63,571 bases of DNA from a virus (Duplodnaviria > Caudoviricetes), in the IMG/VR virus record IMGVR_UViG_3300025009_000102, positions 1 to 63,571 of that record, one strand, 5' to 3'. The notes under the pieces are model-generated. The model worked only from the letters and a program-made list of their open reading frames with translations, ran no database searches and was not told where the DNA came from. Below are positions 7,997-57,902 of the stretch, piece by piece. The stretch's first letter is position 1; each line of letters begins with the position of its first letter. A program made the position numbers and the translations under genes.

Positions 7997-8887
7997 ATGA
8001 ATAGAGCAACCTGGCAGTATGCTTTAGCCCTTGAGGGGGAATTTAAGCGGCGAGGAAAAGTTTTCTCCCGCAATATGATACAGGAATCAATGAAGTGCAG
8101 TGTTGCCCAGGCGAGACTTATTGACTGGGGTCTTAAGCACCGGGATATTATCAGGCTCAAAAAGGTTGACGACAACATTGAGGCTGGCAAGAAGGTGTTA
8201 ATACTGAACGATATCCATATACCATTTCAGGACCAGATTGCGCTCGATGCAGCGCTACAGTTCGGTGACTCATACAGACCTGATGTGGTGATTATTCTTG
8301 GTGATGCCATGGACTTTTACCAATGCTCACGTTTCACCAGGAAGGTTGGTAAGCCCAACATAAAGGAGGAGCTTAGGCGCGGTCGGGCGTTCCTGAGCGA
8401 TCTTCGCCAGAGGTTCCCCGATGCGAAGATCATCTACCTTGAGGGTAACCACGAGAGCCACCTTGAGCGGTATATCCTGGAGCATGCTGTCGAGATCGCC
8501 GACCTGGTTGACGACCTCCTGATTAACAAGCTTGGTTTACACGAGCTTAACATTGAATATCGGAAAAACTTCTTCCGTATCGGCAAGTTATGGTATCTCC
8601 ATGGTCACGAGAAACCTGGCGGTGGAAACGCCGAGTACGTTACCAACGTTATGTTCAAATACACAATTGACCATACCATCTTCGGGCATCACCATCGCAC
8701 CCAGGAAAAAATATTCAAGCGTGTTGACGAGTCAACTTTATGGGTCGGGGCAAACGGTTGTCTGTGCGGGAAGCTTGAGTATGCCCCGCTAAACAACTGG
8801 AATCATGGGTTTGCTACCATCGACTACGGTAATAACGGGACGTTCCGGGCACACCTCCATAAGATCCAGGACGGAACGATCTACTAA
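7997..8887 (+). CDS. Calcineurin-like metallophosphoesterase
   Basis: DIH, GD..D, GNHE, HGH, GHHH motifs. Confidence 0.9.
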   Translation: MNRATWQYALALEGEFKRRGKVFSRNMIQESMKCSVAQARLIDWGLKHRDIIRLKKVDDNIEAGKKVLILNDIHIPFQDQIALDAALQFGDSYRPDVVIILGDAMDFYQCSRFTRKVGKPNIKEELRRGRAFLSDLRQRFPDAKIIYLEGNHESHLERYILEHAVEIADLVDDLLINKLGLHELNIEYRKNFFRIGKLWYLHGHEKPGGGNAEYVTNVMFKYTIDHTIFGHHHRTQEKIFKRVDESTLWVGANGCLCGKLEYAPLNNWNHGFATIDYGNNGTFRAHLHKIQDGTIY

Positions 8888-43403: not shown

Positions 43404-44444
43404 TCAGGGAGTAAGGTCAGTTGCGCCACACTCGAAGCGGACGAACCAGTTCTCGTTGGCCCGGAACGGGGCATACCAGAAGTCAGCGCCGACATATCCG
43501 AAAGTACCGGACGGGTTGGCGTGAGACTTTTGGGAAGGCGGCAGGTAGGTCGGCGAGATCGAAGTCTTGCCATGACCCTTGAGGGATACGTGCCCCCATG
43601 CCTCCTCCGCGATGATCAGCATCGTGTAAACATCTACAGCTGCAGATCCAGCGGACTCCATGCCATTGAGCGTTGCAGAGCCAGCGGCCAGGAGAGGAGT
43701 GAGCAGGGACGAAGATACGAACCTGAATTCCTCACATGCGCCAAACTCACGCTCGTGAACCGGGGTGATCGCGGTTCCGTAATTGATCCGGTCGACGAAA
43801 TGCGGGAGATCCCGGATGTCGCTGGAGCAATCGGTATGCGCGAAGACGATGAAGCAGGGAGCTACACCTGCGGTTCCGAAGTCGGGTCCAGGCTTAATGG
43901 ACGAGGTGACCTTTTTGCCACGGTTGGTTTCCAGGGTCCGAACGCACTGACGAAGTTTCGGCAGGGTGACGGCGGTATTGATACCGGCCCTGGTGGAGCC
44001 GTTCGCATAGACGACGGTGGTTCCGGCGCGGAATTCGCCGAAGTCGATCATCTCGCAGACCTCGCCAAGGGTTTCCCCAGTCAGCTTCTTCATGTCGCCG
44101 GGGATGTCATCCTCGTACATGAGAGCGGCCTTGCTGGTCAGCTTGAAGAGTACGGCGTACTGCTTCAGGGTAACCGATACGTCGGTGTAGCTGATCGTCT
44201 GGGCAGGCGGAACAGCACCCTCTGCGAGCAGGAAGCTCGAAGCGGTGATGGTGGCGATGCCGTTGGAAGCCATGTTGTAAGGGTCAACCCGACGGAAGAC
44301 GATGGTATCGGTCTTGTTGAGGGGTTGTTCTTTCTGCATCCCGAAAGATCCGAGGATCATGTAGGGTTCTGCATGCTTGAGCATTTCGAGTTCGGCTCGA
44401 ATCAGGTTCCTGGAGGGAACAAGTGAATAGGTTTGAGAAGCCAT
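43404..44444 (-). CDS. Major capsid protein (N4-gp56 family)
   Basis: MLKHAEP..IL..FG...DTIVFRR..P; L.EG..P; HTD...DIRDL..F; E.G....RF; P.G..GYVG. Confidence 0.9.
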   Translation of the reverse strand: MASQTYSLVPSRNLIRAELEMLKHAEPYMILGSFGMQKEQPLNKTDTIVFRRVDPYNMASNGIATITASSFLLAEGAVPPAQTISYTDVSVTLKQYAVLFKLTSKAALMYEDDIPGDMKKLTGETLGEVCEMIDFGEFRAGTTVVYANGSTRAGINTAVTLPKLRQCVRTLETNRGKKVTSSIKPGPDFGTAGVAPCFIVFAHTDCSSDIRDLPHFVDRINYGTAITPVHEREFGACEEFRFVSSSLLTPLLAAGSATLNGMESAGSAAVDVYTMLIIAEEAWGHVSLKGHGKTSISPTYLPPSQKSHANPSGTFGYVGADFWYAPFRANENWFVRFECGATDLTP

Positions 44445-44446
44445 TT

Positions 44447-45340
44447 TTATTTACCCCAAATTTGTTTCGCGTAGTGCTTGCGGAGTTCGTTCTCGTTCAT
44501 ATCCGCTTCGCTTTTCGCTTTTAATGTTTTTGCACCGCCCTTGTGGTCGGACGCCGACACTCTCAGCCGTTCCTGTCTTTCTGCGATAATATCCTGCGCG
44601 GTGTCCTCTTCGGTTACAGCGGGCTTCTTACTATCCAGATAAGAATCGATCAGGCTGATACTGTCCATAGCATCCCATGACCCGTACTTCTCTTGGGTTT
44701 CCGGTGTTTGCGTCTTGAGCCAGGGCATAAACTCCGGTTCGTTGACAATTTGCACATGGTTCGGGTGCTTGAATCTGAGCAGCTTCAATTCAAATCCGAG
44801 CTGCTGACGAGTGAGTTTCTCGTCGAAGTCGGTCTGAAGCTCACCCCGTACCTTCTCCACCATGTCCGCCGGTATACCGGCACCCGTCGAAAGACGAGCG
44901 GCGATGTGGGCGTCGATGGCTTCGGCGTGATTCGGGAAGTCTTCCTTGAATGCCAGCCAGTTCTTGTCACTCTCCAGTGCCTTGTCAATTTCCTCTTTAG
45001 TTGGTGCGGGCTTGGCCGTAACCTTATTCAGGTCACGCAGCCTATTGTCGATCCCTCCAACTCGGTTTTCCGCCTGCTTGAGGCGCTGATCGATCCGGTC
45101 GAGGTTCCCCAGGCGACCACTGATTCCGTCGAGCGCTTCGCGGATTACCGTTGGTACTCCTTCCCACGGGTCGACTTTCTCTGCTGCCTTTTCGTCCTTC
45201 GCCTCTTCCTTGGTTATCGTTGGCTCACCGGCGGACGCATCCACGTGCGGCGGTTCTCCACCTTCCCAGATCTCATTTTGAAGCTCCTGACGAATACTTG
45301 CCTCTTCCTTCTCTGCTGCTGCCATCTCTTCAGGCGTCAT
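44447..45340 (-). CDS. Scaffolding protein
   Basis: Acidic, helical, between portal and MCP. Confidence 0.7.
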   Translation of the reverse strand: MTPEEMAAAEKEEASIRQELQNEIWEGGEPPHVDASAGEPTITKEEAKDEKAAEKVDPWEGVPTVIREALDGISGRLGNLDRIDQRLKQAENRVGGIDNRLRDLNKVTAKPAPTKEEIDKALESDKNWLAFKEDFPNHAEAIDAHIAARLSTGAGIPADMVEKVRGELQTDFDEKLTRQQLGFELKLLRFKHPNHVQIVNEPEFMPWLKTQTPETQEKYGSWDAMDSISLIDSYLDSKKPAVTEEDTAQDIIAERQERLRVSASDHKGGAKTLKAKSEADMNENELRKHYAKQIWGK

Positions 45341-45342
45341 AA

Positions 45343-45609
45343 TTAATACTCCAGCCCCAGCGTGTCATGGTGGGTCTTCTGCGGGCGCGGTTTCGCGGCC
45401 TTGTTCATAATTTCGGGCATTGTAAGTGCCCTCTTGATCAATCTGATCTCACCCCTTATGGCGGCGGTTTCATCGGCGCTCAGGTTGGTGTTATCGTTAC
45501 GCTTCCTTGCATCGATCAGGGCGGCAAGAAGCCACTCCCTGACGGCGACCCAAGTTTGCGACTCTTCCCGGAAGTGCGGGGCAATACTGCCAATGATGTC
45601 CATTTTCAT
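45343..45609 (-). CDS. Small head-module protein
   Basis: W...R..ND...TA.IRGEI..IK motif, downstream of portal. Confidence 0.7.
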   Translation of the reverse strand: MKMDIIGSIAPHFREESQTWVAVREWLLAALIDARKRNDNTNLSADETAAIRGEIRLIKRALTMPEIMNKAAKPRPQKTHHDTLGLEY

Positions 45610-47993
45610 CTCGGATAACTCTCCCCGACAGGCGCTCTACCGGCAGGCTCGACTGCAGGCTTAGATACTTCGGGCACTGCCGTCTTGGTGTCTTCCCGGA
45701 TCTCGTTGTGCTTCTGCATGGCCCATTGCATATTCATCGACTCTGCGCTCATAGCCAGCTGCGCTTTCAGCTTCGAGATCTCGATATCTTTCTTCTCTGA
45801 GTACTCCATCATCTTGATCTGGAAGTCGTATTCTTTCATCTTGGCCTGATGCTCACGGTCCAGCTGGGCCTGCTCGGCCTTGAACTGCTGCTCTTGCCGT
45901 GAGGCCTCTTGACGCATCATCTCTTTCTGCATCTCGCCATCGATCTTGACCTTGGCCACTTCCATCTCGGCTGAAGCCTTCTGTTGCTCGGCGTTCGGCG
46001 GCTGGCCTTCTTGTCCTTCCTGGCCGGGTTGCTTCGGCTCTTCGTCCTTCAGGATGTCCAGGTGACTCGATGAGTAGAACAGCTCGATAGCCTTGTCCCA
46101 GTCGGTCTTGCGCTGGATATCCGGATCAGTCGGTTTGAGAGCGAAGATCTGCAGGAGCTGTGCCCGCATCTGGTCCTTCTCGTACAGTACGCTTGCGCCC
46201 CTTGGGTCAACATCCAGATCCTCTTTGATCGAGTCGTCCAGGTGATACTGCATCTCATAATCATACCAGCGGCGAAGGTGCGGGGTGGTGATCGTGTCAT
46301 CCCACCTCTTCAGCTTGCTGCGAAACGTGACATTCGAGGAGTCGACAACTATGTTCGTTGCACCCAGAGTGTCCGGGGTTTCCTTCATCTCGCCCTGAAA
46401 AATCGTTGGAGTTGCGGTCATCAGGTCAATGAACTTCAGGGTCAGTTCGAGGATCGCCTGCAGTGGGGCCTGGTTGTTCTCCAGCTGGACCTGAGTAATA
46501 GCCTTACGGATATCATCGATCTGCGTCTCGCCATCCCACTTCCACAGCTTCTTGCCGGTAACCTCCCAGATATCGTCTTCAGGCTCCAGTCCCATGATCG
46601 CCAGGTTACCACCAGAGCTATCACCGGCGTTGTCCATCATCTGACGCCAGACAGCATTGATTATCCGCTGTGCCCACATGATCTTGATAGGCTCGCCTGC
46701 TCCCCACGGGATGTCGGCAATGCTCGACCAGGTAAAGAAGTCATATGGGTGATCGCCAGTATCAAGCAGGTTCAGCGTGACCTTAACCGGTCTGTCGTTT
46801 ATGAAGACGACTCTTGCCGAAACAGGCTTATCGTTCGGGCAGTCGCACCCCAAGATCCTCATGTACTCAGGCTTGACCTCTCCGTTGTACTCCCACAGCT
46901 CATAGACCTCGCCCATACTGGCGTTATCTATGTTAATTCTCATCAGGTTGCCACGCTCGTCAACAGCCACATTGAGGCGTTTCGGCTCTTCCTGCAGCAC
47001 CATTTCCAGCTGTTCGCTCTTATAGCCGGGAAGGCCTATCAGCCTCTGCACATCCCTCGGCCTGATCGTATCCTTCTCCCAGATCCCTGACGCCTTCGCG
47101 ACATCCTGGCCACAGTCGGCTGTCGGGTACACGTTCCACGGAGACACGGATACACTGATCGGCTTCTGGTCCTCCTGGAAGTGCAGCACTCGTACTGGTA
47201 CGGTTTTGCCTGGCTTAGTCGGATCTTTTGAGACAGACTTCTTCCAGACCTTTTTCAGCTTCCTGCTATTGCACGGCCCCTTGAGGATGCCGGTGCCAAG
47301 CTGGACGGCGTTCTCAATAACCTTCCGCTCTTCACTATTGAAGTTGCATTCACACAGGGCATCGTGAACAACCCGCTCCATACCAGCCATAGCCTTCTCG
47401 GCCTTGGCCCGGAGGTGTCGGCCTACCTGGTCCATGGTTGCCGGTTCTTCTTTACCGGGTAGCATCACGGGCTTACCATTCGGACCCATCGCGGTCCTGG
47501 TGTCGCCCTCCATCTTCAGGATGTCGACATTCGGGGTGATCTTGAATGCCCAGTTTTTTGATCTGACGGGCAGGAGAATATCCTCAAACCGCCCGACAGA
47601 CACTTCACACCGGCCACGTATCAGATTCATCACGACACGTGACCGCTTAACCTTGCTGTTATCAACTATCGGCGCATTACCCGACGCACGGTCGATCATC
47701 GACGGAGCCAATTCGAGATCCGACGAATAATCCAACGACTCTTCACATAACCGCCACCATTTTTCGATTCCACTCTGTGCCCGGAACTGAACGGCCTCGG
47801 TTCTGCTCTTGAGGATAGATTCGGCAACTAGAAGGAGGTCCGCCCTGATCGCCTCCATCTCTTCTTCCGACGGACTTTCGTCATCAAGTTCGATCATCGA
47901 ATCGTCAACCGGTACATCCTCGCTCACGGCGAGAAGTCCATCTGCAGGTTCGATTGCGGAAAAGTCTTGTTCTTCCTCGTATTTATTGGCCAT
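45606..47993 (-). CDS. Portal protein
   Basis: 795 aa; LGTGILKGP, VSPWNVYP, WG.G...Q..IN..WR.MMDN; Q/E-rich C-terminal barrel. Confidence 0.9.
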   Translation of the reverse strand: MANKYEEEQDFSAIEPADGLLAVSEDVPVDDSMIELDDESPSEEEMEAIRADLLLVAESILKSRTEAVQFRAQSGIEKWWRLCEESLDYSSDLELAPSMIDRASGNAPIVDNSKVKRSRVVMNLIRGRCEVSVGRFEDILLPVRSKNWAFKITPNVDILKMEGDTRTAMGPNGKPVMLPGKEEPATMDQVGRHLRAKAEKAMAGMERVVHDALCECNFNSEERKVIENAVQLGTGILKGPCNSRKLKKVWKKSVSKDPTKPGKTVPVRVLHFQEDQKPISVSVSPWNVYPTADCGQDVAKASGIWEKDTIRPRDVQRLIGLPGYKSEQLEMVLQEEPKRLNVAVDERGNLMRINIDNASMGEVYELWEYNGEVKPEYMRILGCDCPNDKPVSARVVFINDRPVKVTLNLLDTGDHPYDFFTWSSIADIPWGAGEPIKIMWAQRIINAVWRQMMDNAGDSSGGNLAIMGLEPEDDIWEVTGKKLWKWDGETQIDDIRKAITQVQLENNQAPLQAILELTLKFIDLMTATPTIFQGEMKETPDTLGATNIVVDSSNVTFRSKLKRWDDTITTPHLRRWYDYEMQYHLDDSIKEDLDVDPRGASVLYEKDQMRAQLLQIFALKPTDPDIQRKTDWDKAIELFYSSSHLDILKDEEPKQPGQEGQEGQPPNAEQQKASAEMEVAKVKIDGEMQKEMMRQEASRQEQQFKAEQAQLDREHQAKMKEYDFQIKMMEYSEKKDIEISKLKAQLAMSAESMNMQWAMQKHNEIREDTKTAVPEVSKPAVEPAGRAPVGESYPR

Positions 47994-48632: not shown

Positions 48633-48833
48633 TTACGGTTTCTCGCTTGCCTGTCCTGGTGCTTTTTCGGGGCCGACCTTCGACCAGGGGGAAATATCCG
48701 ATACGTTCTCGCCATTGATGCTCCTCCATTCAGTCTGACCAGGCACTTCCGTGATCATGCCGCAATCCACGCACTTAAATAGACTGCCCCCAGGGCCGCG
48801 CCTAACAACACTCACCTTATTGTGAATACACAT
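48633..48833 (-). CDS. Small Cys-containing hypothetical protein
   Basis: TGATG overlap with the terL stop. Confidence 0.5.
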   Translation of the reverse strand: MCIHNKVSVVRRGPGGSLFKCVDCGMITEVPGQTEWRSINGENVSDISPWSKVGPEKAPGQASEKP

Positions 48834-50152
48834 CAGTAACCTACCCCGCTGTCCAATGGCCGTGAATATGCGGCCCCTCTGTTCGGCGCTCGGTACTTCA
48901 TGCGCCCCCTTTCCTCATTACTGAACTGCTCGACATTCAGGGACAAATACCTGAACATGTCAGCGCCGTTCGAAAACTCGTCATGGATAGGACCGGTTTC
49001 TGCCCCAGTCTGCTTGCTCACGTGCCTCCTGTAGCGCTTTAAGCACTCGACCAGCCTGGTACACCCCTTGTCGATATAAACGCGAGGGAAGGTCATCCTG
49101 GCGATCCTGATGCCCTCTTCTATGGATGCCTCTACTATCTCATCCCTGGTCGGTACATCCCAGCCGAGGGCGTGTAGGATATCGGCGCTGGACTTACCAT
49201 GGCTCTTCATGTCACCGGCAAAGCCGTCATGCGGCAACCATAGCCGCCCCCAATTATAGTGCTTCTCCTTCATCTCGACACTGTACGAGTCCCATGTCCT
49301 GCGGTTATCCTCGATATAATCGATAACACGGATCTCCGATGCCCTGCGCTGTACGAAGCCGATGGCCTGCGTGTCGTTGTAGCCGATGTCGACCACCAGG
49401 TGGACCTTGAGGAACGGGTCATACGGAACGTTGCATATCCTGCCCTGGCGCTCCATCTCGGCTACCTGTTTGTAGTAGATGGCCCCGGCAACTGCAGGCC
49501 GACATAGGCCTAACCATATGTTGTCGTAGTCGTCCGGGCGCTTGAGCAGGCACTCGATCCGGGATCTCTCGGATGTAGCCGTCAGGAACGGGTTGTCCCG
49601 GTAGTCAACATGAACCACCTCGTATTCTTCCGGGTCCGCCTCGGTGACGAACCGCTTGTATGTCTCGTCAGTCTCAAGTTCAGGGTTGAACGACACCCAG
49701 ATCTCAGAACCTTCTTTCCGGATAGTCGGTATCAGTACATCCCAGGAGCGCTTACTGACGGCATGCGCCTCCTCAACCCAGACGATGTCGAAACCCTCGT
49801 ATGATTTCAGGGAGTGGATTGTGTGCTGCGCCAGGCCCTCGAAGACGAACAGCGTGCCGTTCTGCCCGATGATCCTGTCCCGCTGGATAGTGTAGAACCA
49901 TGACAGATCAAGAGCTGCTATCTGGTCCTTCAGAAGCTGGTATACCGATTCGTCGATGGAGTCTTGGACTTCACGGGTGCATAGGATACGTTTCGGCGAG
50001 GCATACCCGGTAACGACCAGGGCGCGAGCGAATGACCAGGACTTACCACTGGACCGTCCGCCCTTGGCTACCTTGTAGCGTTTTGGCTTGAAGAGGAAAT
50101 GAAACTTCTCAGGAATATCGAGAGAGAGTCTTGAGTCATATTGCTTGCCCAT
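48833..50152 (-). CDS. terL: Terminase large subunit (PBSX-type)
   Basis: KGGRSSGKS Walker A, WVEEA Walker B, SFNP, DIGYND, LPHD, HDEFSNGADMFRY. Confidence 0.95.
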   Translation of the reverse strand: MGKQYDSRLSLDIPEKFHFLFKPKRYKVAKGGRSSGKSWSFARALVVTGYASPKRILCTREVQDSIDESVYQLLKDQIAALDLSWFYTIQRDRIIGQNGTLFVFEGLAQHTIHSLKSYEGFDIVWVEEAHAVSKRSWDVLIPTIRKEGSEIWVSFNPELETDETYKRFVTEADPEEYEVVHVDYRDNPFLTATSERSRIECLLKRPDDYDNIWLGLCRPAVAGAIYYKQVAEMERQGRICNVPYDPFLKVHLVVDIGYNDTQAIGFVQRRASEIRVIDYIEDNRRTWDSYSVEMKEKHYNWGRLWLPHDGFAGDMKSHGKSSADILHALGWDVPTRDEIVEASIEEGIRIARMTFPRVYIDKGCTRLVECLKRYRRHVSKQTGAETGPIHDEFSNGADMFRYLSLNVEQFSNEERGRMKYRAPNRGAAYSRPLDSGVGY

Positions 50153-50169
50153 AGCAGAAAACATAATTA

Positions 50170-50202
50170 TTGCACGGTAACAGGGCAAGTGTTACCGTGC
50201 AA
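50170..50202. repeat. 13-bp perfect inverted repeat upstream of terL
   Basis: TTGCACGGTAACA-7-TGTTACCGTGCAA. Confidence 0.8.
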
Positions 50203-50219
50203 GAAACCTGTGGTGATTC

Positions 50220-50648
50220 TTATTTAATGGTGTACCCGAGGGCAGACGCCGGGAAGTAATCCCTGGTAAGCTTGCCGTTGTGAAACATCGGTGAAATTAC
50301 AGAGACGCATGGCTCAAGTGAGCAATGATCTATATACCACCTGACTACCGTGTAATTTTGCGTTTGCATTGGAATGGAGCAACCCTCCGGATAAGTTTGC
50401 CGAAGTTTTTGGAGAAGATCCTCAGCCTTCCTGCGCCTGGCTTTCAGGTCTTCCATGTTCTTTATTCGTTCGGCCCTCTCGTCGGCCTTGTCCTTTTCAA
50501 GTTGCTCATCCATCCAGTTCTCTTCCATTCTCTCGTCTACCTGCCGGTGGATCTTTGCCTGCAGTTTGAAGTAGAACCATGATACGATGCCAAACAACAT
50601 GACGGAAAACAGTACCGCCAATCCTACCCATTCCTCAATACTCATCAC
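50220..50648 (-). CDS. Membrane-anchored hypothetical protein
   Basis: N-terminal TM + coiled coil. Confidence 0.7.
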   Translation of the reverse strand: MMSIEEWVGLAVLFSVMLFGIVSWFYFKLQAKIHRQVDERMEENWMDEQLEKDKADERAERIKNMEDLKARRRKAEDLLQKLRQTYPEGCSIPMQTQNYTVVRWYIDHCSLEPCVSVISPMFHNGKLTRDYFPASALGYTIK

Positions 50649-50935
50649 CCACCCCCGTAGAGTTCTTTTCTGACCATGAGCATTGCGGCCAGGTTTATTA
50701 CATCAATCCAATCGCCAGTCCCAACATTATCGCGCAACCTCCGATACAGCGCGGGGTCAATTGCCGGATCTTGCCGTAGCCAACCCCCCTCGCCCTCCTC
50801 ACGCTTCTCATTGAGACGCATCGTCATCTGCTTATACACGACCCTGCGTAACATATCCGAAGCGCTCTCGTCCGAGATCTCTCTGGTTATCATGTCGATC
50901 AGGTCACTGTGTACAACTTTCATCCGCTCAGGCAC
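50645..50935 (-). CDS. Small helical protein (possible MazG-like fold)
   Basis: M..RL.EKR..G.GGW...GD.IDV.NLA.M. Confidence 0.6.
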   Translation of the reverse strand: MPERMKVVHSDLIDMITREISDESASDMLRRVVYKQMTMRLNEKREEGEGGWLRQDPAIDPALYRRLRDNVGTGDWIDVINLAAMLMVRKELYGGG

Positions 50936-50936
50936 G

Positions 50937-51164
50937 CTATCTCTCCTTTTTGTGTAGTTGAATGACTACGCTGAACATCAGGCGCGGGAATACCCGAACG
51001 CACGAGTATGAATACCCAAACATCCTGGCTATGTCGCCCTTGTTCCTTCGCCTCTTCTCCACCCTGGACTTGATCATGTCACTCCGTCGCCGCGCATACA
51101 TGATCGAATCGTAGGCTATCCTTGCCACCTGTCTTGCTGTGCGTACATCGTCTTCGTTTACCAT
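50937..51164 (-). CDS. hypothetical protein
   Basis: Operon packing. Confidence 0.55.
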   Translation of the reverse strand: MVNEDDVRTARQVARIAYDSIMYARRRSDMIKSRVEKRRRNKGDIARMFGYSYSCVRVFPRLMFSVVIQLHKKER

Positions 51165-51460
51165 TTGCCAGACTCCGCCCAGATCAATTCAAGCATATGC
51201 CACTGCCTGGGTGTCAATGGACAATATGCGTGATCGATGATAATGTTTTTCACTGCTATGCCACACCACCGGAATTCCTCTATCCATGCGGGTGACACGA
51301 TGTTGAGATCACTCCTACCGATGTTTTCAGCCAGGTGTTTAGGGTAATCAAGTTGTCCATTGGCCCAAACATAATAAGCACCGATAGGAGCCGCGAGCAT
51401 CTGGTGAGTAGTGTTGCCCACCTGACGGCCATTAATCATCCTTGTCATGCCACCAACCAC
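51158..51460 (-). CDS. Mini-protein resembling a degenerate terminase ATPase domain
   Basis: GRQVGNTT (Walker A-like, K>N) and G....IIIDHA (Walker B-like, E>H). Confidence 0.6.
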   Translation of the reverse strand: MVGGMTRMINGRQVGNTTHQMLAAPIGAYYVWANGQLDYPKHLAENIGRSDLNIVSPAWIEEFRWCGIAVKNIIIDHAYCPLTPRQWHMLELIWAESGKW

Positions 51461-51538
51461 CGTTATAAAAACAGGTCAAATAAATAATAACTGCAACCAT
51501 GGCGATGTTCGCCAGGGCAATGACGACTAAGGCTCCAA

Positions 51539-51757
51539 TCATCTAACTACCTCCTCAATTTTCATAAAGACTGTCAGATCTGCCCATACACCATTGACTA
51601 ATTGGAACTGGTCGTGATCGAATCGACGGCCATCGATGGTCATCCCGCCAGGGAATATTTCGATGGTCTTGCAGTCAACACACACAATCGTCCCGTTTGG
51701 AGCTGTGAAGCAATATCTCATGCCAGTGATACCCTTCATTCTATTTCCCTCCAGCAC
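51539..51757 (-). CDS. hypothetical protein
   Basis: Operon packing. Confidence 0.55.
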   Translation of the reverse strand: MLEGNRMKGITGMRYCFTAPNGTIVCVDCKTIEIFPGGMTIDGRRFDHDQFQLVNGVWADLTVFMKIEEVVR

Positions 51758-52008
51758 TTATTACATGCCAACTTGTTATCCATGCAGGCCCCACATGGCG
51801 GAGATCTGAAGCACGTACACCCTTGGACAGGAGGCAACTCGATAATGCCGTCACAGCCATCCAGGCCGCACACATCGCCCTCTTCTTTACCGAGTGGATC
51901 GTCAAGGATCACCGCCAGGCTCACCCTGACATATCCTTCTGGCACCGCCTTGTTCTCCTCAAGCACCCGTGCCGCCCGCCTCAATGATTCGATAGTCAGT
52001 CCTGTCAT
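51736..52008 (-). CDS. Cys-rich small protein
   Basis: C...GC.G...CTC..SPPCGAC...C..C. Confidence 0.65.
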   Translation of the reverse strand: MTGLTIESLRRAARVLEENKAVPEGYVRVSLAVILDDPLGKEEGDVCGLDGCDGIIELPPVQGCTCFRSPPCGACMDNKLACNKCWREIE

Positions 52009-52490
52009 TCATTCATCTCCTTGAGCGCACGCATAGCGATTTCTTCCTGGACCTCGGCGAGCCACCGATCAGTGGCCCTCAGCTGAACGTGGTCCGAGAT
52101 GGGGAAACTATCATGCCGGTGTTCCCATGCATAATGAAGGGCGTCGTCAATACCGGTCTGCCTCATAATACCAGTACCATATATCATCGCCGAACGCATG
52201 GCATGGTGCATGGCATCTCTGACATCGTCCCGCTCATCCTCGACGACTGGTCCATACTTACCCAACCTGCGAAAGGCGATTGTGTCTGACGCTTTACGGT
52301 CGCCGAGGTTACTCATGATGAGTGACGGTTCAGCACGCCTGAGCATCTTCCTGGCCGACTCTTCAGCTACGGCTGCATACGGATTTTCCAGGTGATTAAT
52401 ACGGCGCTGTAGGGCGAGGAGTTCAACCTGCATCCTCGATAGGCTGCCGCTCAATTGCCTGACACGTTTCTTCCACTTGTTGTAATTCAT
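52005..52490 (-). CDS. 161-aa mosaic of capsid-, portal- and terminase-like peptides
   Basis: ML..AEP..I...G...DTI.FRR...Y matches the own MCP N-terminus; AMIYGTGI resembles portal LGTGI; DD..DA..A and DDALHYA resemble the TerL motif. Confidence 0.7.
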   Translation of the reverse strand: MNYNKWKKRVRQLSGSLSRMQVELLALQRRINHLENPYAAVAEESARKMLRRAEPSLIMSNLGDRKASDTIAFRRLGKYGPVVEDERDDVRDAMHHAMRSAMIYGTGIMRQTGIDDALHYAWEHRHDSFPISDHVQLRATDRWLAEVQEEIAMRALKEMNE

Positions 52491-52687
52491 CGATTCATGT
52501 CCCTTAACATGTAATGAAGGGAGAGTGTCGGGAAGATGAAGTTGCCACCGCCCTCCACCCAGGATAGGATCTCCAGCTCTTCTGCTGTCCATGGGTTGGT
52601 AAGCCATAGCATTTTGATCTTCTTGACGATGACATTATGAATTCTGCTCTCCCAGTAGTGCTGCTCTGTCATGCCATTATATTTCAT
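52487..52687 (-). CDS. hypothetical protein
   Basis: ATGA-coupled to the next gene. Confidence 0.55.
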   Translation of the reverse strand: MKYNGMTEQHYWESRIHNVIVKKIKMLWLTNPWTAEELEILSWVEGGGNFIFPTLSLHYMLRDMNR

Positions 52688-52733
52688 TTGGAAAATCCTG
52701 CACAGAAAAGTGATCGGAAGGTAACGGAAAGCG

Positions 52734-53105
52734 TTACTTTATGGATATGTCGTCATCAATATAGCCGTGTTTGCCAGTACCGCCTTTGCGCACCACAACT
52801 ATCGGGTATATTGATTTGTCGGTAGTGTCGGCAACTAATACGGTGCAATCTTCATGGTGGTATTCCCTGAGTCCTATCCAGTCGTTGCGGCTGTTTAGTA
52901 CCATGACCATCTTGCCGTCCCAGGTCATGTTCTCAAAGAATACACGAGATCCGCACTTGTGGCAGATGGTGTATTGATCGCTCTCCTCGGCAGGCATGCC
53001 GCTCGGCATTACCAGGTTCTTATAATTCATATCCGAGCTGTAGTTCGGCCTATTGCGCCACCAGCCAGCCAGGCCTCCGCAGTGTGCATGGGATATTCTG
53101 ATCAT
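52734..53105 (-). CDS. hypothetical protein (Cys/His motifs)
   Basis: ATGA overlap. Confidence 0.6.
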   Translation of the reverse strand: MIRISHAHCGGLAGWWRNRPNYSSDMNYKNLVMPSGMPAEESDQYTICHKCGSRVFFENMTWDGKMVMVLNSRNDWIGLREYHHEDCTVLVADTTDKSIYPIVVVRKGGTGKHGYIDDDISIK

Positions 53106-53449
53106 TTATTCCTATCCAGTGGGTTGAAGTGGAATTTGGGGTGAGTCTTGAGTTGACCCTCAACAGCAACGAAGTTAAAAAGATCCACCAGTAGCTCAAA
53201 GTTACCGGTTTCCCTATAGGCGTCAAACTTACCCTGCATGTAGTCCATAAGGCTCTCGTGATCCCAGTTGCTTCCGTGGCGAATACCTCCCATGATCAGC
53301 CTGGGCCTTGCCAGCGATACGATCTCTTCCAGCTTACTGGTCATTGCGCGGATCTCAGCGCCCATAACCACGGGATCTCGCTTCTTGACTGAGCATATAC
53401 CCATTCTACTGTACATCCTGTCACGGATTATATCGTGGTCACTCTTCAT
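53102..53449 (-). CDS. Conserved-looking helical phage protein
   Basis: RLIMG..R.G...Y..TGN.E.LVD..N. Confidence 0.65.
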   Translation of the reverse strand: MKSDHDIIRDRMYSRMGICSVKKRDPVVMGAEIRAMTSKLEEIVSLARPRLIMGGIRHGSNWDHESLMDYMQGKFDAYRETGNFELLVDLFNFVAVEGQLKTHPKFHFNPLDRNK

Positions 53450-53655
53450 TCAACGATCTCCAGGTTTTCAAGTGGCTCTACGCCATAGACCGCAGGCCTG
53501 CCGTTGCGCAGCTCATGGTTATTACACCTGTCCGCTGCATCAGCACACCTTACCCTGTTTCGATGGCACTCGATAATGGTTTTACTGGCTACGTTCAAGA
53601 CAGCAAAGCGATGGTAACTCTCGATTCTTACCCAGTCGCACTTGGCTACTTTCAT
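53446..53655 (-). CDS. hypothetical protein
   Basis: SD GGAGGT. Confidence 0.6.
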   Translation of the reverse strand: MKVAKCDWVRIESYHRFAVLNVASKTIIECHRNRVRCADAADRCNNHELRNGRPAVYGVEPLENLEIVE

Positions 53656-53748
53656 GATTACCTCCAGGGAATTGTCGCCGCCCGGCGAAGTATTGATCTG
53701 CCGGGCGGCTCTTAATGACCGTTGCTGCTCTTTGTCGCGTGGTCGTTT

Positions 53749-53888
53749 CGTTAACTTTGGGAGACGGGCGGTTTGCCGCTTCCTGCAGGCTGATCAGGCC
53801 AAAGATTCGGTTCGCATTCTCCTCCAGGGGCGCTGCAGTGTACCGTCTGGGGTGTTTTAGCTTAAACTACCGTCTCACAAAGATAACG
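53749..53888 (-). ncRNA. tRNA-like structured RNA with expanded central domain
   Basis: GAGACGG/CCGTCTC-CCA stem, TA, D-arm GTTT..AAAC, 3' GCGG-CAAA-CCGC hairpin; outer helix CGTTA.CTTTG/CAAAG.TAACG. Confidence 0.55.
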
Positions 53889-53978
53889 ATTGCCGGTCTT
53901 TCCCGGCTGTCAGGCCTTGCCACATGAGGTTTACTTTTTTACGTGTTGTGTCCCTCCAACATCAGTCACGGGTCCAGG

Positions 53979-54053
53979 TGGTTGCGGGGGCGGTAATCGA
54001 ACCCGCCATGTCAAGCTTATGAGACTTGTGCCTTGCCGCTCGGCCTCCCCGCA
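53979..54053 (-). tRNA. tRNA with CAT anticodon (elongator Met or Ile2), CCA encoded
   Basis: TGCGGGG/CCCCGCA acceptor stem, CAAGT-CTCATAA-GCTTG anticodon arm, GTTCGA T-loop, ACCA end. Confidence 0.85.
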
Positions 54054-54076
54054 TTCAGAATTACACAATAACACAT

Positions 54077-54292
54077 TCAAGGGATCTTTACACAGGAATT
54101 ATCCACCTTATGGATACGATTCCTCTCGATTGCCAACTGGCTACCATTCGGCAGGACCAGGCAGGCACACTCGCCACGTTTGCCGTCGAAGAACCAGCCA
54201 CGGAAGTTCGCCTCATAAAGAACCTCCGGGTCGTAGAGATCTTCGAACGATACGGTATCGCCAACCGATAGCCAGTCCATCACACACCTCAC
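54077..54292 (-). CDS. hypothetical protein
   Basis: GTGA overlap. Confidence 0.55.
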   Translation of the reverse strand: MRCVMDWLSVGDTVSFEDLYDPEVLYEANFRGWFFDGKRGECACLVLPNGSQLAIERNRIHKVDNSCVKIP

Positions 54293-54498
54293 TTGATAGA
54301 AACCAAGAAACCGCCCCTCAACATACCCTCTGCATACCAGCGATGTGGTTTAGGATAGTGCGGACCTTCGAGGTACACCTTACCATCAACCATCGGTCCA
54401 CCGAATGGGCCAGGCTGAAACACCGAGATTTTCTCGCCGTGAGCGATGGCATCTTTGACTTCTTTCTTTGTTTTAAAATTGACTGATGTGTATGCCAT
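54289..54498 (-). CDS. Small conserved-looking phage protein
   Basis: SD GGAGG; NFKTKK..K...EGPHYP.PH.WYA. Confidence 0.75.
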   Translation of the reverse strand: MAYTSVNFKTKKEVKDAIAHGEKISVFQPGPFGGPMVDGKVYLEGPHYPKPHRWYAEGMLRGGFLVSIK

Positions 54499-54541
54499 GA
54501 TGTCCTCCAGGTTGGGTTGATCTGACTTACCTTACAAATCA

Positions 54542-54570
54542 ACCTTACACCCTGGCTGGATTGATGTCAA
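54542..54570 (-). promoter_or_regulatory. Strong sigma70-type promoter (early class)
   Basis: TTGACA-17-TAAGGT; shares GGGTGTAAGGT with the promoter at 61340. Confidence 0.75.
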
Positions 54571-54573
54571 GAA

Positions 54574-54858
54574 TTATTTTTTGTATGGTTTTGGGACATA
54601 TACCAGCTCCTTCTTCAAGCCGCAAGCTGGGCAACTACGCTCATATACCCGGAATGGACCTATATCGTCTACCCAGTCACGGATTTCTGCCAGGTTAAGA
54701 TCCTCATGCCTTCCAGTCCAGCCACACGCCGTGCAATGCTCAATGCGATCTGGCTGTATGACCCACTGTTCCGGTCGCTTCATGGCCCCACAGTCGACAC
54801 ATACCGCAGTGAAACCATGGAACGATATCGCGCATGTCCTCTCGTGTTTACAGCTCAT
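54574..54858 (-). CDS. Zn-finger hypothetical protein
   Basis: Multiple CxxC. Confidence 0.6.
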   Translation of the reverse strand: MSCKHERTCAISFHGFTAVCVDCGAMKRPEQWVIQPDRIEHCTACGWTGRHEDLNLAEIRDWVDDIGPFRVYERSCPACGLKKELVYVPKPYKK

Positions 54859-55268
54859 GGCCCACAGTCCTCCCAGATCTCGATTACCGACAACTCAGCC
54901 AGGCCGTCACTGTTCTGCATCACCCGGAAGCCATTACCCTCGTGCGTGTCGTCGCAGTCCGCACAGATATACTCGCACGCTATTTCGAGGTCACCGAATT
55001 TCTCGATTGCCTTGTCAATTTCCTTTCTCAGTTTTGACAGTCTCACTGATATTCTCCTTGCGTTTTTCGCTTTCCAGCTTCATTGCCTCGACCGCCTGTT
55101 TCCTGGTTGTAAAATATACCTTCCCGTTTAGCCCAAATGGGAACATGCGCTTTCTCGTTCTCTTGAGATAGGCAATCCAGAAAGTAAGAAGATCATCTGA
55201 CATTGCGTGAATAAGCGACTCCACCACGCTCTTACCGTCGCTTCGTATCGGTCGCTCAATTACATCCT

Positions 55269-55964
55269 TCATTCATCGTCCTCCACAAGCATGGTCGTTG
55301 ACCGCCCGTCGTCGTCCTTATTTCGATTCGACGGCACCAGGTTGATGTCGATCACACTGTGCCGCTGTTTACCGTCGCCGTCCTTATCGGTGATTCCATA
55401 GACCGCCCGCTCCTTGTCGATCAGCCGTGCCTGCGTCTCGACGAGCTTCTTAATCATATCAACCTGCCCCCCTAAAGATATCACCTGCCGATAGAGATCA
55501 TTCAGCTTGTCATAATTAACATCCGGGTCCTTCATCATCTCGCCCAGCGCTACTAACTCGTCGCTGTTGTCATATACCAAAGCCAGGCGGTCCATAAGCT
55601 TCTCGCACAAACCCCTCGACCGTCTAATATCCCGCCTATTACCAGAGATGATATCTGCGGCACAGAGAGCTGATGCGTCAAACACGGCCTTATCGCGCTG
55701 GTTCTTGGTCATAGTTACAAGCGCTCGCTCCGCAACTGTCACTATCGCCTCACGCTCTGTTACTATCGCTTCAGCCTTTGCGATGATCCTTGCCCTCATA
55801 TCCCGCTTGACCCCGCGCTTATTCATCTCCTTAATAAGTGCGGGGCGAGAGCATTTAACACCGGTTCGCTCGGTATATGCTCTCACAATTTGATCTGGCG
55901 ATAGTATACCTGCGACCCATTCAGCCTCCATGCTATCATAGTCAATTCTGCGCTTAGGAGCCAT
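55269..55964 (-). CDS. terS: Terminase small subunit
   Basis: IDY..MEAEW.AG..S...I.K....G..RD...RI HTH, helical body, ER..YGI. Confidence 0.7.
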   Translation of the reverse strand: MAPKRRIDYDSMEAEWVAGILSPDQIVRAYTERTGVKCSRPALIKEMNKRGVKRDMRARIIAKAEAIVTEREAIVTVAERALVTMTKNQRDKAVFDASALCAADIISGNRRDIRRSRGLCEKLMDRLALVYDNSDELVALGEMMKDPDVNYDKLNDLYRQVISLGGQVDMIKKLVETQARLIDKERAVYGITDKDGDGKQRHSVIDINLVPSNRNKDDDGRSTTMLVEDDE

Positions 55965-56548
55965 TACAACCACCCGTGGTGCTGATATTTACAAAACACG
56001 TCGAGGACCAGCGAAAGACGATTAATTTCGTCAAGTGGAGGTATAGACAGAGGAATAACCCCAGCCTCTAAACACGCATTCTCTACCAACAGATCTTGCT
56101 GCTCATTTCCAATGGAGTTAAAGAGTAGACAGCGACGGACAACCATTCCATTGGCGTTAATCTGTGATGCATACATACCAACCTGGCCTATACCGGCAAC
56201 GACAGACCTCACATCATTGGCGTCCTTGGCCTCTATAACAGAGATCGAGCCGTCAATATGGAAGATCACGATATCTGCCCTCCCATAGATCAGCTTATAT
56301 TCCACTATAACCTTATCGTCAGGGTGGCACGGTATGCGCGTCTCTCCGCCGTCACGCCGAATAAGATTCAGAAAAACTTTAACTAAAAATGATTCGCTAT
56401 GGACGAAAGACTCACTGGCGGCGTGGACCCTAGACAATTCTCTCATTAGCATGAGAAAACATGCCACCTCACTATCAGACGGATTGCTCGGGTCCATCTT
56501 GGAGAAATCTACCTTCTCCCAGTCAACATCCTTTCGCCTCGCTGCCAT
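55964..56548 (-). CDS. PD-(D/E)XK nuclease-like protein
   Basis: E...GRADIV...VIEAK...GIGQV..YA. Confidence 0.65.
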   Translation of the reverse strand: MAARRKDVDWEKVDFSKMDPSNPSDSEVACFLMLMRELSRVHAASESFVHSESFLVKVFLNLIRRDGGETRIPCHPDDKVIVEYKLIYGRADIVIFHIDGSISVIEAKDANDVRSVVAGIGQVGMYASQINANGMVVRRCLLFNSIGNEQQDLLVENACLEAGVIPLSIPPLDEINRLSLVLDVFCKYQHHGWL

Positions 56549-57506
56549 ATCATCCCCTCGGTACGTTGGTATTCTTCCAGGCGTCCTTCAGGCCCGCCCA
56601 GATCTCACGGCAACCGAAGATAATGTCCTGGACACCGTCGATGATTACTATACTTATCTGACAGAAGATAAACACTGTCATGCAGGCAACCGCGAGAAAT
56701 GGCATTACCGCCCTTCTGAGCCACATTGGTTTGATATCATATACTGTATATTGCTTCATTGTCTACCTTCCCCTTCCAGGATTGAATTAATCAAAATACT
56801 GCGATGTCCTCAAGCGAGCGGATCAGCTCCTGGATCTTCTTCATCCTGGGATGCGCATTCCAGTATTCCTCGCACGCCACCATGATCATATCCAGTTCCT
56901 TGCTATCGAGAATAATAATCGCCCGCTTCAACTCCTTCCGCTTCTCACTCAGAGCGCCGTATATCATTTCACCCCTCCACCAGGTTACAGCAAAGATCAT
57001 CATAGATCTCTTGCCACGATGCAAAGCTGCAGCCATTAGCCAGCTGAACGACTTTATCCTTATGGAATTCACCGCTATCCAGCATATCCAGGGCATTGAT
57101 CCCAACATCATGGACCATCACGACCAGGTCTGCCAAGTCCCTTGAAAACATGCTCGACAGCTTGATATATTTCCCGAGGGAAACAGTAGTCCAGTTCGGC
57201 CTCATGTCGACCACGATCTTGAAACGCATATTATTCAGATAGAACATATTTTCACCTTATTCCTATATGGAATATTACTTCCAAAAGTACCGTACCAGTA
57301 CGATTACCTTTGCGCCCCATATGCCACCCGCCAGCAATGATGGATTCTCAACCATTCTGATCAGGGCACCGATCTCATCTTTCTCTGAAACCATGTCCCT
57401 ACCATATTCCTCGCAAGACACGAACTCCGGATCACCACGGAGACAGATCTCGTCGTCGACGGAGTGTATGATCTTCCTGGGGCAATTCTCGAAAGATTCG
57501 CTCATC

Positions 57507-57902
57507 TCAATCCTCCAGCACCTTCCTGGTGTATCTCTTGGCACCCTTACCTGCCATATACCACGTTATTGCTACCAGGATTGTTTTGGCGAGCCACGCT
57601 GGCATATTCTTACCTACGGCTATGTTGTAGTATTCCTTATCAACCATAGGCTGCATAGAAGATGGTAGCCAACCCATATTGATATAGTCACACAAGACAT
57701 CATGGACGCAGGAGGCCTTCATGGCATTCTTGGTAGTCAGGCCTATGCCGCTATTACCATCCCACGGATACCACATCAAGATAGTGAGCTGGCCATCTTT
57801 GCGCAGATGCGTCAGCTTGTCCCAGACGGTATAGCCTTTGATGTCGGTCTGCACAGTGAACGACTCGGCGACAACATAGTTGTACCCGCGATAATATTTC
57901 AT
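57507..57902 (-). CDS. DUF1353-like protein
   Basis: Y.WDG.S...AS.VHD.LC...D..Y. Confidence 0.7.
   Translation of the reverse strand: MKYYRGYNYVVAESFTVQTDIKGYTVWDKLTHLRKDGQLTILMWYPWDGNSGIGLTTKNAMKASCVHDVLCDYINMGWLPSSMQPMVDKEYYNIAVGKNMPAWLAKTILVAITWYMAGKGAKRYTRKVLED

Follow-up and report, generated by a model that had tools for sequence, protein, structure and literature searches.

Few triggers of bacterial immunity are as common as capsid proteins, and mutation of these proteins is regarded as the main way in which phages evade recognition. Sensors reported to be triggered by the capsid protein (MCP) include Avs7 and Dsr1 (10.64898/2026.01.04.697583) and CapRel (PMC13728456), and the first of these reports describes Avs7-type sensors as reading extended folded MCP surfaces. 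DSAD1 of phage SPbeta is described as occupying the site at which the DSR2 sensor binds the tail tube (PMC11087589). In head assembly, SaPI1 CpmB is reported to copy the motif at the C terminus of 80alpha scaffolding protein, competing for the scaffold's site on the capsid protein (PMC5644958), and SaPIbov5 Ccm is described as a capsid-protein homologue that co-assembles with the helper capsid and redirects its shape (PMC8569155). Inhibitory, dominant-negative protein fragments are reported to have been found experimentally (PMC9245647). The segment of interest here is the capsid protein's N-terminal arm. In N4 and DEV, this N-arm (residues 1-46) is described as contacting neighbouring subunits (PMC11768535, PMC11445570), and N-arm helices are reported to bind the scaffolding proteins of P22 and 80alpha (PMC9965877, PMC5644958).

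We have analysed P0001, a 161-residue accessory ORF in a 63,571-nucleotide viral sequence (IMG/VR record IMGVR_UViG_3300025009_000102), the whole of which we call the window. By analogy with CpmB, P0001 may be small, helical and oligomeric, bearing a short homologous copy of an interface motif taken from a head-assembly protein, and competition is proposed for it; CpmB, as described, is satellite-encoded and copies a scaffold, whereas P0001 is phage-encoded and copies the N-arm of the phage's own capsid protein. With DSAD1 there is already a case in which an accessory protein of a phage keeps a sensor blocked through competition with the structural-protein trigger, the mechanism that we tentatively favour for P0001. 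However, the portion of the DSAD1 report available to us does not describe that protein as trigger-like in sequence, whereas P0001, a candidate competitor, holds a sequence copy of part of the putative trigger. Like Ccm as it is described, P0001 would be an extra capsid-protein homologue outside a structural role; unlike Ccm, it has only the N-terminal segment and is unable to form the HK97 fold. With dominant-negative fragments it would share the principle that a fragment blocks the interactions of its parent protein in vivo, but the fragments of that report are described as laboratory constructs of bacterial proteins, and the fragment considered here is a natural, selected phage gene. Literature searches yielded no account of a phage that encodes part of its own capsid protein a second time.

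Results

A preliminary description of this DNA had read P0001 as a mosaic of capsid, portal and terminase fragments. The ORF and every peptide quoted there were found where that description placed them: the MCP peptide (44277-44393) corresponds to MCP residues 18-56, the portal motif begins at residue 229 of the portal protein, and that of TerL at residue 402 of TerL. P0001 lies on the minus strand (52005..52490, stop codon included), with its ATG at 52490 and its stop at 52005, and it is coupled by ATGA overlaps to ORF 52487-52687 upstream and to ORF 51736-52008 downstream. We place the start at 52490, and not at the upstream ATG at 52607, because the relatives of P0001 start at the aligned position (alignment A1) and because the ATGA overlaps are present on both sides. 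P0001 is a real ORF, translationally coupled to both of its neighbours. Contigs of near-identical sequence occur in four runs of four other studies, three without differences and the fourth with a single nonsynonymous C>T at 52117; these contigs are short fragments that leave parts of the stretch uncovered. The sources listed for near-identical sequence include no RNA run, and we infer late expression from strand and position only.

P0001 sits in a variable accessory cassette (50189..55268, minus strand) between terS (55269-55973; phrog_1206, E 2.2e-28) and terL (48833-50188; PF04466, E 8.2e-40). A tRNA-Met gene (53979-54053) lies in the same gap. When the ORFs of the gap were compared with the sister loci L002-L009, only 52737-53105 had a BLASTP match at E<=1e-4. 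The relatives of P0001 occupy the same place in sister phages, and there the gene is not always present: a clean 2775-bp block containing P0002 is missing from L002, with flanks that are 92-99.7% identical. The family gene is dispensable, as shown by the absence of P0002's block from this near-identical phage.

The family consists of four sequence clusters among 5.8 billion proteins (P0001, P0002, P0004 and P0005), the four clusters being backed by 7, 25, 18 and 2 contigs. No further representative was present among 1.84 billion proteins; tblastn against 50,697 phage records and megablast of the head region added no member, and two pattern scans of IMG/VR (alignments A1 and A3) returned nothing new. 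P0002, P0004 and P0005 are very diverged relatives of P0001. Identity within the family is 24-35% (A1), compared with 75-77% for TerL and 81-82% for MCP. P0001 retains all 15 family-invariant positions (A1). It is the shortest member, and lacks a Cys motif and some 70-100 residues found in P0002 and P0004. This tiny, lineage-restricted family comprises accessory proteins from N4-like phages, with a basic N-terminal helix, a partial copy of MCP and a C-terminal helical block that carries an invariant D...GTG..R.

The likeness to the MCP N-terminus claimed for P0001 proved to be far above chance. The phage's own MCP (gene 43404-44444) is identified by phrog_1357 (E 1.9e-35) and by matches to the solved N4-like capsids 9d82, 9d7z, 9e99 and 9bgn (E 2.7e-21 to 3.8e-18). 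P0001 aligns with it by BLASTP over 15/37 identities (E 5e-6), and among 621 six-frame ORFs of the window MCP is the best non-self match of P0001 (E 8.9e-4), with the runner-up at E 1.2. The Smith-Waterman score of 66 was reached by 0/30000 shuffles, the top shuffle scoring 64. In profile-profile comparison (hhalign; probability 87.8%, E 3.3e-6), P0001 residues 47-82 (52245..52352, minus strand) align with MCP residues 19-59 (44268..44390, minus strand). This range corresponds to the distal N-arm and first beta-strand, or N-terminal arm and E-loop base, of N4-gp56-type MCPs (TIGR04387, phrog_1357; N4, DEV, PDB 9bgn and relatives), a mapping taken from the N4 and DEV papers and from HMM alignment to solved chains, not from a model of this MCP. 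In the BLASTP alignment P0001 matches all five invariant MCP N-terminal positions (L22, A25, P27, T47 and R51 in alignment A2), and it carries the conserved L, A, P ... T..R positions that mark the N-arm and first strand. The FRR at P0001 residues 73-75, within the module, is invariant in all four family members. In the reverse direction, an HMM of MCP residues 1-100 searched against 8417 ORFs ranked P0004 (1.1e-4), P0001 (0.016) and P0002 (0.12) directly below the true MCPs. By these sequence comparisons, residues 47-82 are a genuine, diverged copy of one part of MCP, namely its distal N-arm with the first strand.

The relatives extend this result. P0002 aligns with its own MCP over 22/66 identities (E 1e-5), up to MCP residue 86; P0004 matches the MCP of L028 (E 2e-5), its residues ~55-123 aligning with MCP ~17-86. 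Profile-profile comparison of the longer copies with MCP gives probability 95% (E 3.8e-8), and P0005 alone has no significant similarity to MCP. The length of the copy changes stepwise: in P0004 it runs through the E-loop with an insert, in P0002 it does so without the insert, in P0001 it ends after FRR and in P0005 hardly anything besides FRR remains of it. The longer copies, those of P0002 and P0004, run to the end of the E-loop's rising strand. With 36 columns in P0001 and about 65-70 in the two longer members, the shared segment is short. A distant MCP, that of L037, scores 77 with P0001 (0/20000 shuffles), above the phage's own MCP. We considered whether each copy tracks the MCP of its own phage, and rejected the idea: the informative sites, counted by eye, favour the phage's own MCP by 3:0 for P0001 and 3:2 for P0002, which is too few, and P0001 matches L037 best.

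Family proteins hold just a small part of an N4-gp56-type MCP, between roughly a tenth and a quarter, with unrelated N- and C-terminal regions added. Among 18950 NCBIfam models, the sole match of P0002 is TIGR04387 (N4-gp56 capsid; E 0.0014), at 18 bits on positions 35-76 of a 324-position profile whose whole-protein cut-off is 60 bits. P0004 scores 12.2 bits against this profile, and P0001 residues 40-85 score 11.2 bits on positions 12-49. The phrog_1357 model matched no family member, either as whole proteins or as 42-46-aa windows. HMMs of MCP 100-150, 198-245 and 101-346, run on 8417 ORFs, found none of the family below E 19. Because the remainder of the HK97 fold (spine helix, P-domain and A-domain) is absent, the protein cannot build a capsid. 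Two further candidate matches came to nothing firm. A collinear alignment of the family VRD...YGTG block with MCP ~207-226 was a low-confidence hhalign alternative (E 0.078-0.09) that HMMER did not support, and ORF 57275-57544, the top non-MCP match of the MCP 198-245 HMM (E 0.27), reached only E 0.85 by BLASTP and was discarded.

The capsid N-terminal segment was the part of the proposed mosaic that stood; the portal, TerL and C-terminal capsid segments did not. The likeness to the phage's portal (phrog_332/phrog_1216 type) has a BLASTP E of 0.92, is equalled by 984/1000 shuffles and reaches an hhalign probability of 0.7% (E 0.078). The TerL likeness has a BLASTP E of 35, with 664/1000 shuffles scoring as high and an hhalign E of 0.29. 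When the C-terminal 'ISD...' piece, taken as residues 80-161 alone, was compared with 10 MCPs, the best comparison was equalled by 34/1000 shuffles and the others by 153-643/1000. Searched against the 8417 ORFs, a portal HMM returned family members only at E 31-48, a full-length TerL HMM returned one family member (P0004, E 21), and an HMM of TerL 380-451 returned none at E<=100. Portal and TerL models in PHROG, Pfam and NCBIfam matched neither the whole proteins nor 42-46-aa windows. The preliminary description had said beforehand that segments scoring no better than shuffled sequence would refute the mosaic, and this is how the portal, TerL and C-terminal segments behave. Since these segments score at or below shuffled sequence, P0001 is not a multi-epitope mosaic, and the scores mark the supposed portal and terminase pieces as chance resemblances. 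A stretch of P0002 and P0004, 'IDPG...SGIA', resembles what we take to be the first hairpin of RNase H-like nucleases; Pfam and PHROG gave this candidate no support and the TerL HMM reached E 21 there, and we do not retain it.

The supposed portal and TerL motifs both fall in the second conserved block of the family (residues 88-112; 52155..52229, minus strand), which has invariant D92, G105-T106-G107 and R110 (A1) and no significant match to portal, TerL or MCP. The N-terminal basic helix (residues ~1-38; 52377..52490, minus strand) is conserved in all four members. It is probably a coiled coil that serves oligomerisation, and its only matches are of the generic coiled-coil kind: SNAPC5 (E 0.051), Prefoldin (E 0.15), an XhlA-type PHROG (E 0.014) and BAG/YbgF chains (E 0.6-1.2). 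In a single-sequence AF2 model of P0001, helix 3-35 is the only part at pLDDT 61-71. The AF2 models are otherwise unusable (overall pLDDT 45 for P0001 alone, and 32.7 for MCP with 9 sequences), and a complex prediction for one pair, MCP with P0001 (score 0.00, mark 0.32), was counted neither way. Searches of Pfam, PHROGs, NCBIfam, PADLOC, PDB sequences and the ESM Atlas gave no usable family assignment for the whole protein. P0001 matches phrog_492 (E 0.0027) and phrog_26911 (E 0.048), both without known function; its ESM Atlas scores of 0.84-0.85 are under the lead threshold, and all that the PADLOC families gave was noise of the coiled-coil kind (LmuB, E 0.035-0.047).

In the sister lineage the gene evolves under purifying selection: dN/dS is 0.25 between P0002 and P0004 over 226 codons, a measurement of these two and not of P0001 itself. 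dN is 0.25 in the MCP-like codons 46-90 and 0.05 in codons 1-45, and constraint is stronger on the N-terminal helix and on codons 136-180 than on the MCP-like part. As the MCP-like codons are not the most constrained, the module may be tolerated rather than essential.

Discussion

We propose that P0001 is a molecular mimic of the capsid N-terminus, and put the probability of this reading at roughly 0.45. The gene would have originated by partial duplication of the 5' end of the MCP gene and fusion to other sequence. Its product, probably an oligomer, would display the segment that is most conserved at the N terminus of unassembled capsid protein, and would compete for whatever binds there. The data are compatible with such a mimic of one capsid epitope, whether it works as a decoy or competes in assembly. 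As the partner we favour, tentatively and at rather less than the weight given to mimicry itself, a host sensor of newly made capsid protein; P0001 would then be a candidate anti-defence competitor produced together with the trigger. A 35-70-aa piece may fail to reproduce the extended MCP surface read by Avs7-type sensors. That a selected, dispensable gene copies only the N-terminal stretch in which the capsid protein can change least suggests a phage competing with a trigger instead of changing it. It is improbable, in our estimate, that this reflects a widespread and undescribed counter-defence principle, in which partial copies of a phage's own capsid protein, kept by selection, serve as trigger decoys and an oligomeric N-arm copy occupies, without activating, a host sensor or co-factor of nascent or unassembled capsid protein (as for Avs7, Dsr1, CapRel or Lit/Gol).

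The second candidate partner is the phage's own assembly interface, and we judge it unlikely. The N-arm copy would bind either the scaffold (a putative scaffold of 297 aa is encoded at 44447-45340) or the MCP site that receives the N-arm of a neighbouring subunit, and would thereby adjust procapsid assembly, set its timing or limit it, or else poison assembly in co-infecting related phages; P0001 would then be a natural dominant-negative fragment acting on head assembly. The described contacts of N-arms with scaffolding protein in P22 and 80alpha and with neighbouring subunits in N4 speak for such a role, as does the reported action of CpmB through a short copied scaffold motif. P0001 also keeps family-wide invariant MCP positions, matches the L037 MCP better than its own, and shares its strand and block with the head genes. 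However, the gene is missing from a near-identical sister phage and assembly therefore does not require it, the conserved core, once copied, would strike MCP or scaffold of the phage itself as readily as those of a competitor, and P0001 has no detectable scaffold similarity (hhalign E 0.47). The multi-epitope decoy of the preliminary description, in which capsid, portal and terminase fragments block several sensors such as Avs and CapRel, is scarcely credible. Its capsid piece is real, and the GTG motif of the family aligns to the same portal position in profile-profile comparison, at only P 0.078; the shuffle comparisons, the reverse HMM searches and the profile searches of whole proteins and windows all argue against the remainder.

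It is very improbable that P0001 is a non-functional, decaying copy of the longer gene of the sister phages. Its shortness, its missing Cys motif and the restriction of the selection estimate to the sister lineage would fit decay, but its frame is unbroken and joined to both neighbours by ATGA overlaps, every family-invariant position is kept and near-identical sequence recurs in other studies. We regard as doubtful, and somewhat less so than a role in assembly, the proposal that the MCP stretch is a relic of the illegitimate recombination that created the gene, with a function unrelated to capsids residing in the N-terminal helix and the D...GTG..R block. The stepwise shortening of the copy from P0004 through P0002 and P0001 to P0005 is in line with a relic, as is the stronger constraint on the N-terminal helix and codons 136-180. 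On the other side, FRR is invariant in every member, and P0001 has kept the invariant MCP N-terminal positions despite the divergence of the family. If the stretch is a relic, the case still shows accessory genes being built from pieces of core genes.

The region itself appears prone to recombination, which also fits a relic: a GIY-YIG endonuclease gene adjoins P0002, and the boundary with the next gene is conserved over 22 nt. This 3' end of P0001 (52007..52028, minus strand) has 21/22 DNA identity with the sister-phage genes and contains the Shine-Dalgarno AAGGAG and start region of the next gene, which accounts for the near-identical last 8 residues of P0001 and the sister proteins. It is the only blastn match at E<1 (5.5e-5) between the gene region of the window and L004/L006.

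A single capsid-like segment in P0001

P0001, the 161-aa accessory ORF on the minus strand at 52005-52490, resembles the N terminus of the phage's own N4-gp56-type major capsid protein (MCP), and this resemblance is real. BLASTP aligns P0001 residues 48-79 with MCP residues 20-56 (15/37 identities, E 5e-6), and when the 621 six-frame window ORFs of 50 aa or more are searched, MCP is its top non-self match (E 8.9e-4; the next match has E 1.2). The Smith-Waterman score of the pair, 66, was reached by none of 30000 P0001 shuffles, the highest of which scored 64. Nine aligned MCPs (alignment A2) share five invariant positions within their N-terminal 60 residues, and P0001 matches every one of them. 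A very distant MCP, that of the related locus L037 (22% identical to the window MCP), is matched by P0001 as well (score 77; 0/20000 shuffles), so P0001 retains the core shared across the MCP family and does not track the MCP of its own phage. Profile-profile comparison of the P0001 family with MCP, using alignments from related phages, gave a probability of 87.8% (E 3.3e-6). When 42-46-aa windows of P0001 were compared with PHROGs and NCBIfam, the N4 capsid model was the sole named family (residues 40-85, E 0.16).

The preliminary description had presented P0001 as a mosaic of capsid, portal and terminase fragments acting as a multi-epitope decoy against defence sensors. All of the peptides it quoted were correctly located and the MCP N-terminal piece held, but those attributed to portal, terminase and the capsid C terminus were no better than chance. 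Against portal, BLASTP gave E 0.92 and 984/1000 shuffles scored at least as high; against TerL, the values were E 35 and 664/1000. For the C-terminal 'ISD...' piece, P0001 residues 80-161 were compared with 10 MCPs, with a best result of 34/1000 shuffles and 153-643/1000 for the others. No portal or TerL family was matched by the 42-46-aa windows, and profile-profile alignment of the family with portal (probability 0.7%, E 0.078), TerL (0.2%, E 0.29) and the putative scaffold (0.1%, E 0.47) was negative. In reverse searches of 8417 ORFs from the window and 43 related loci, HMMs of portal (full length; residues 205-260) and TerL (full length; residues 380-451) recovered the family only at E 21-48, amid random ORFs. 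We therefore reject the multi-epitope decoy; a putative single-segment capsid mimic stays the best reading.

A small family of relatives

P0001 alone had no match in 5.8 billion clustered proteins, in 1.84 billion representatives (HMMER) or in 50,697 phage records. Relatives emerged when 43 related loci were gathered via TerL and then searched. They occupy the equivalent place upstream of terL in sister phages with TerL 75-77% identical: P0002 (228 aa; identical DNA in L003, L004, L005 and L007), P0004 (267 aa; L006) and P0005 (218 aa; L009) are 35%, 34% and 24% identical to P0001, respectively. Neither P0002 nor the family profile, used as query, retrieved anything beyond these four clusters, and none of Pfam, PHROG, NCBIfam and PADLOC provides an assignment for the family.

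The members share three conserved blocks: a basic helix at the N terminus, an MCP-like block that closes with an invariant FRR (P0001 residues 73-75), and a D...GTG..R block with invariant D92, G105-T106-G107 and R110. Within the last region, VRD...YGTG (P0001 residues 90-107) is collinear with window MCP ~207-226, including two MCP-invariant residues; this alignment is low-confidence hhalign output (alternative alignment, E 0.078-0.09) and found no HMMER support. P0002 and P0004 carry a further 70-100 residues that P0001 lacks. P0002 (~113-118), P0004 (~130-136) and P0005 (~52-57, 105-110 and the C terminus) also have CxCxxC-type motifs, possibly a zinc site, that are missing from P0001; P0005 bears an additional Cys-rich acidic tail. 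A strand-turn-strand-looking stretch in P0002 (~161-179) and P0004 (~197-215) resembles the first hairpin of RNase H-like nucleases, a reading for which profile searches gave no support.

The relatives strengthen the capsid link of the family. Over MCP residues 21-86, P0002 can be aligned with the MCP of its own phage (22/66 identities, E 1e-5), and P0004 aligns with a distant MCP (locus L028) through the conserved E-loop motif (20/73 identities, E 2e-5). With P0004 as master, hhalign against the MCP alignment gave a probability of 95% (E 3.8e-8), with confident columns pairing P0004 ~55-123 with MCP 17-86. Among 18950 NCBIfam models, TIGR04387 (N4-gp56 family major capsid protein) is the sole match of P0002 (E 0.0014) and the best of P0004 (E 0.078); these matches span profile positions 35-76 and fall far under the 60-bit cut-off, as expected of a fragment. 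An HMM built on MCP residues 1-100 ranks P0004 (1.1e-4), P0001 (0.016) and P0002 (0.12) right behind true MCPs. P0005 on its own shows no significant MCP similarity, and the family contains no counterpart of MCP beyond residue ~86. Two reports place the N4 and DEV capsid proteins' N-terminal arm at residues 1-46, reaching neighbouring subunits (PMC11768535, PMC11445570). The copied part would comprise the distal N-arm and the next strand and, in long members, also the rising E-loop strand, a mapping that rests on HMM alignment to solved N4-like chains (the model of the phage's own MCP has a pLDDT of only 32.7).

Selection and dispensability

P0002 and P0004 differ with dN 0.167 and dS 0.656 (dN/dS 0.25, 226 codons), and dN/dS is below 0.4 in every 45-codon window. 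The family gene is dispensable, because the near-identical sister locus L002 lacks the whole P0002 block: 2775 bp of L004 (5841-8615) are cleanly missing from L002 at position 3721, between flanks that are 92% and 99.7% identical. The block contains P0002, four small ORFs and, directly upstream of P0002, a free-standing GIY-YIG endonuclease gene (L004 6993-7415; PF01541, E 9e-8). In L006 and L009 the family gene occurs without the endonuclease.

A putative capsid mimic

The protein is thus accessory and dispensable, evolves fast under selection, and contains a copy of MCP's most conserved N-terminal stretch. This segment is its sole HK97-fold part, the gene lies on the late strand, and by membership tests the protein is neither a capsid, a portal nor a terminase protein. 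The family could have arisen by partial duplication of the 5' end of the MCP gene and may act by mimicry, competing for the partner of the copied segment. Both the homology and the evidence of selection are solid, and the design is an unusual one, but the family is tiny and what it shares with MCP is a short segment.

The partner could plausibly be a host factor sensing newly made capsid protein, the class we favor. Phage MCP is a documented trigger of Avs7 and Dsr1, according to a preprint (bioRxiv 10.64898/2026.01.04.697583), and of CapRel, according to a review (PMC13728456). DSAD1 is a known phage protein that competes for the sensor site against a structural trigger (PMC11087589). That the gene is dispensable, patchily present, quick to diverge and subject to domain turnover fits a conflict gene. 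The copy might, also plausibly, bind the phage's own assembly interface: N-arm helices bind scaffold in P22 (PMC9965877) and 80alpha (PMC5644958), and in the latter the satellite protein CpmB competes via a copied scaffold motif. We favor the host sensor because a conserved-core copy would be as harmful to assembly of the phage itself as to that of a rival, and because one sister phage manages without the gene. A substantial alternative is that the MCP module is a tolerated relic and the protein's function resides elsewhere, since the copy shortens stepwise from member to member and the MCP-like part is not the most constrained region between P0002 and P0004.

Among known systems, the proposed mimic is closest in mechanism to CpmB, a motif-copying competitor at a head-assembly interface, and to DSAD1, a competitor of a trigger. 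In origin it is closest to the MCP N-arm itself and to Ccm, an additional capsid homologue. In the non-subscription literature searched, no phage is described that encodes a copy of part of its own capsid protein.

Gene setting and spread

The phage is N4-like, and its 63,571-bp IMG/VR record is 100% complete (CheckV). Its minus strand encodes a virion RNA-polymerase-sized ORF (3517 aa, 17142-27695), MCP (43404-44444; phrog_1357, E 1.9e-35), a portal-type protein (45606-47993; best PHROG match phrog_332, head-tail adaptor, E 8.5e-28; phrog_1216, portal protein, E 0.0015), TerL (48833-50188; PF04466, E 8.2e-40) and TerS (55269-55973; phrog_1206, E 2.2e-28). Lying between the genes for portal and MCP, a 297-aa ORF (44447-45340, minus strand) that has no Pfam match and a weak PHROG match of unknown function is likely the scaffolding protein, judged from its position.

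The P0001 gene sits in the ~5-kb terS-terL gap, where only ORF 52737-53105 matched sister loci L002-L009 (BLASTP E<=1e-4). This accessory cassette also holds the sole tRNA found, tRNA-Met (CAT) (53979-54053, minus strand), and may include lysis genes, as a 142-aa ORF directly upstream of terL (50220-50648, minus strand) has weak holin and Rz-like spanin PHROG matches (E 0.003). The P0001 ATG at 52490 overlaps the stop of an upstream 66-aa ORF and its stop at 52005 overlaps the ATG of a downstream 90-aa ORF (ATGA in both cases); 9 nt upstream of the P0001 start there is an AAGGGA. Since the relatives begin at a position aligned with 52490, the ORF is unlikely to start at 52607, which would lengthen it to 200 aa.

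The final 8 residues of P0001 are nearly identical to those of P0002 and P0004 because a 22-nt gene-boundary stretch, holding the Shine-Dalgarno AAGGAG and the overlapping start region of the next gene, is conserved (21/22 identical; window 52007-52028, minus strand; L004 ~8131-8152; L006 ~2991-3012). The flanking genes are otherwise without detectable DNA similarity between these phages, and the boundary may be a translation-coupling signal or a recombination joint for accessory-gene swaps. Four other studies, in metagenome runs from groundwater, freshwater and wastewater, yielded short contigs at least 99% identical to window 51700-52800. Three of those matching the P0001 gene region have no differences, and the only change in the other is C>T at 52117 (depth 17), which by codon count alters Arg125 of P0001.
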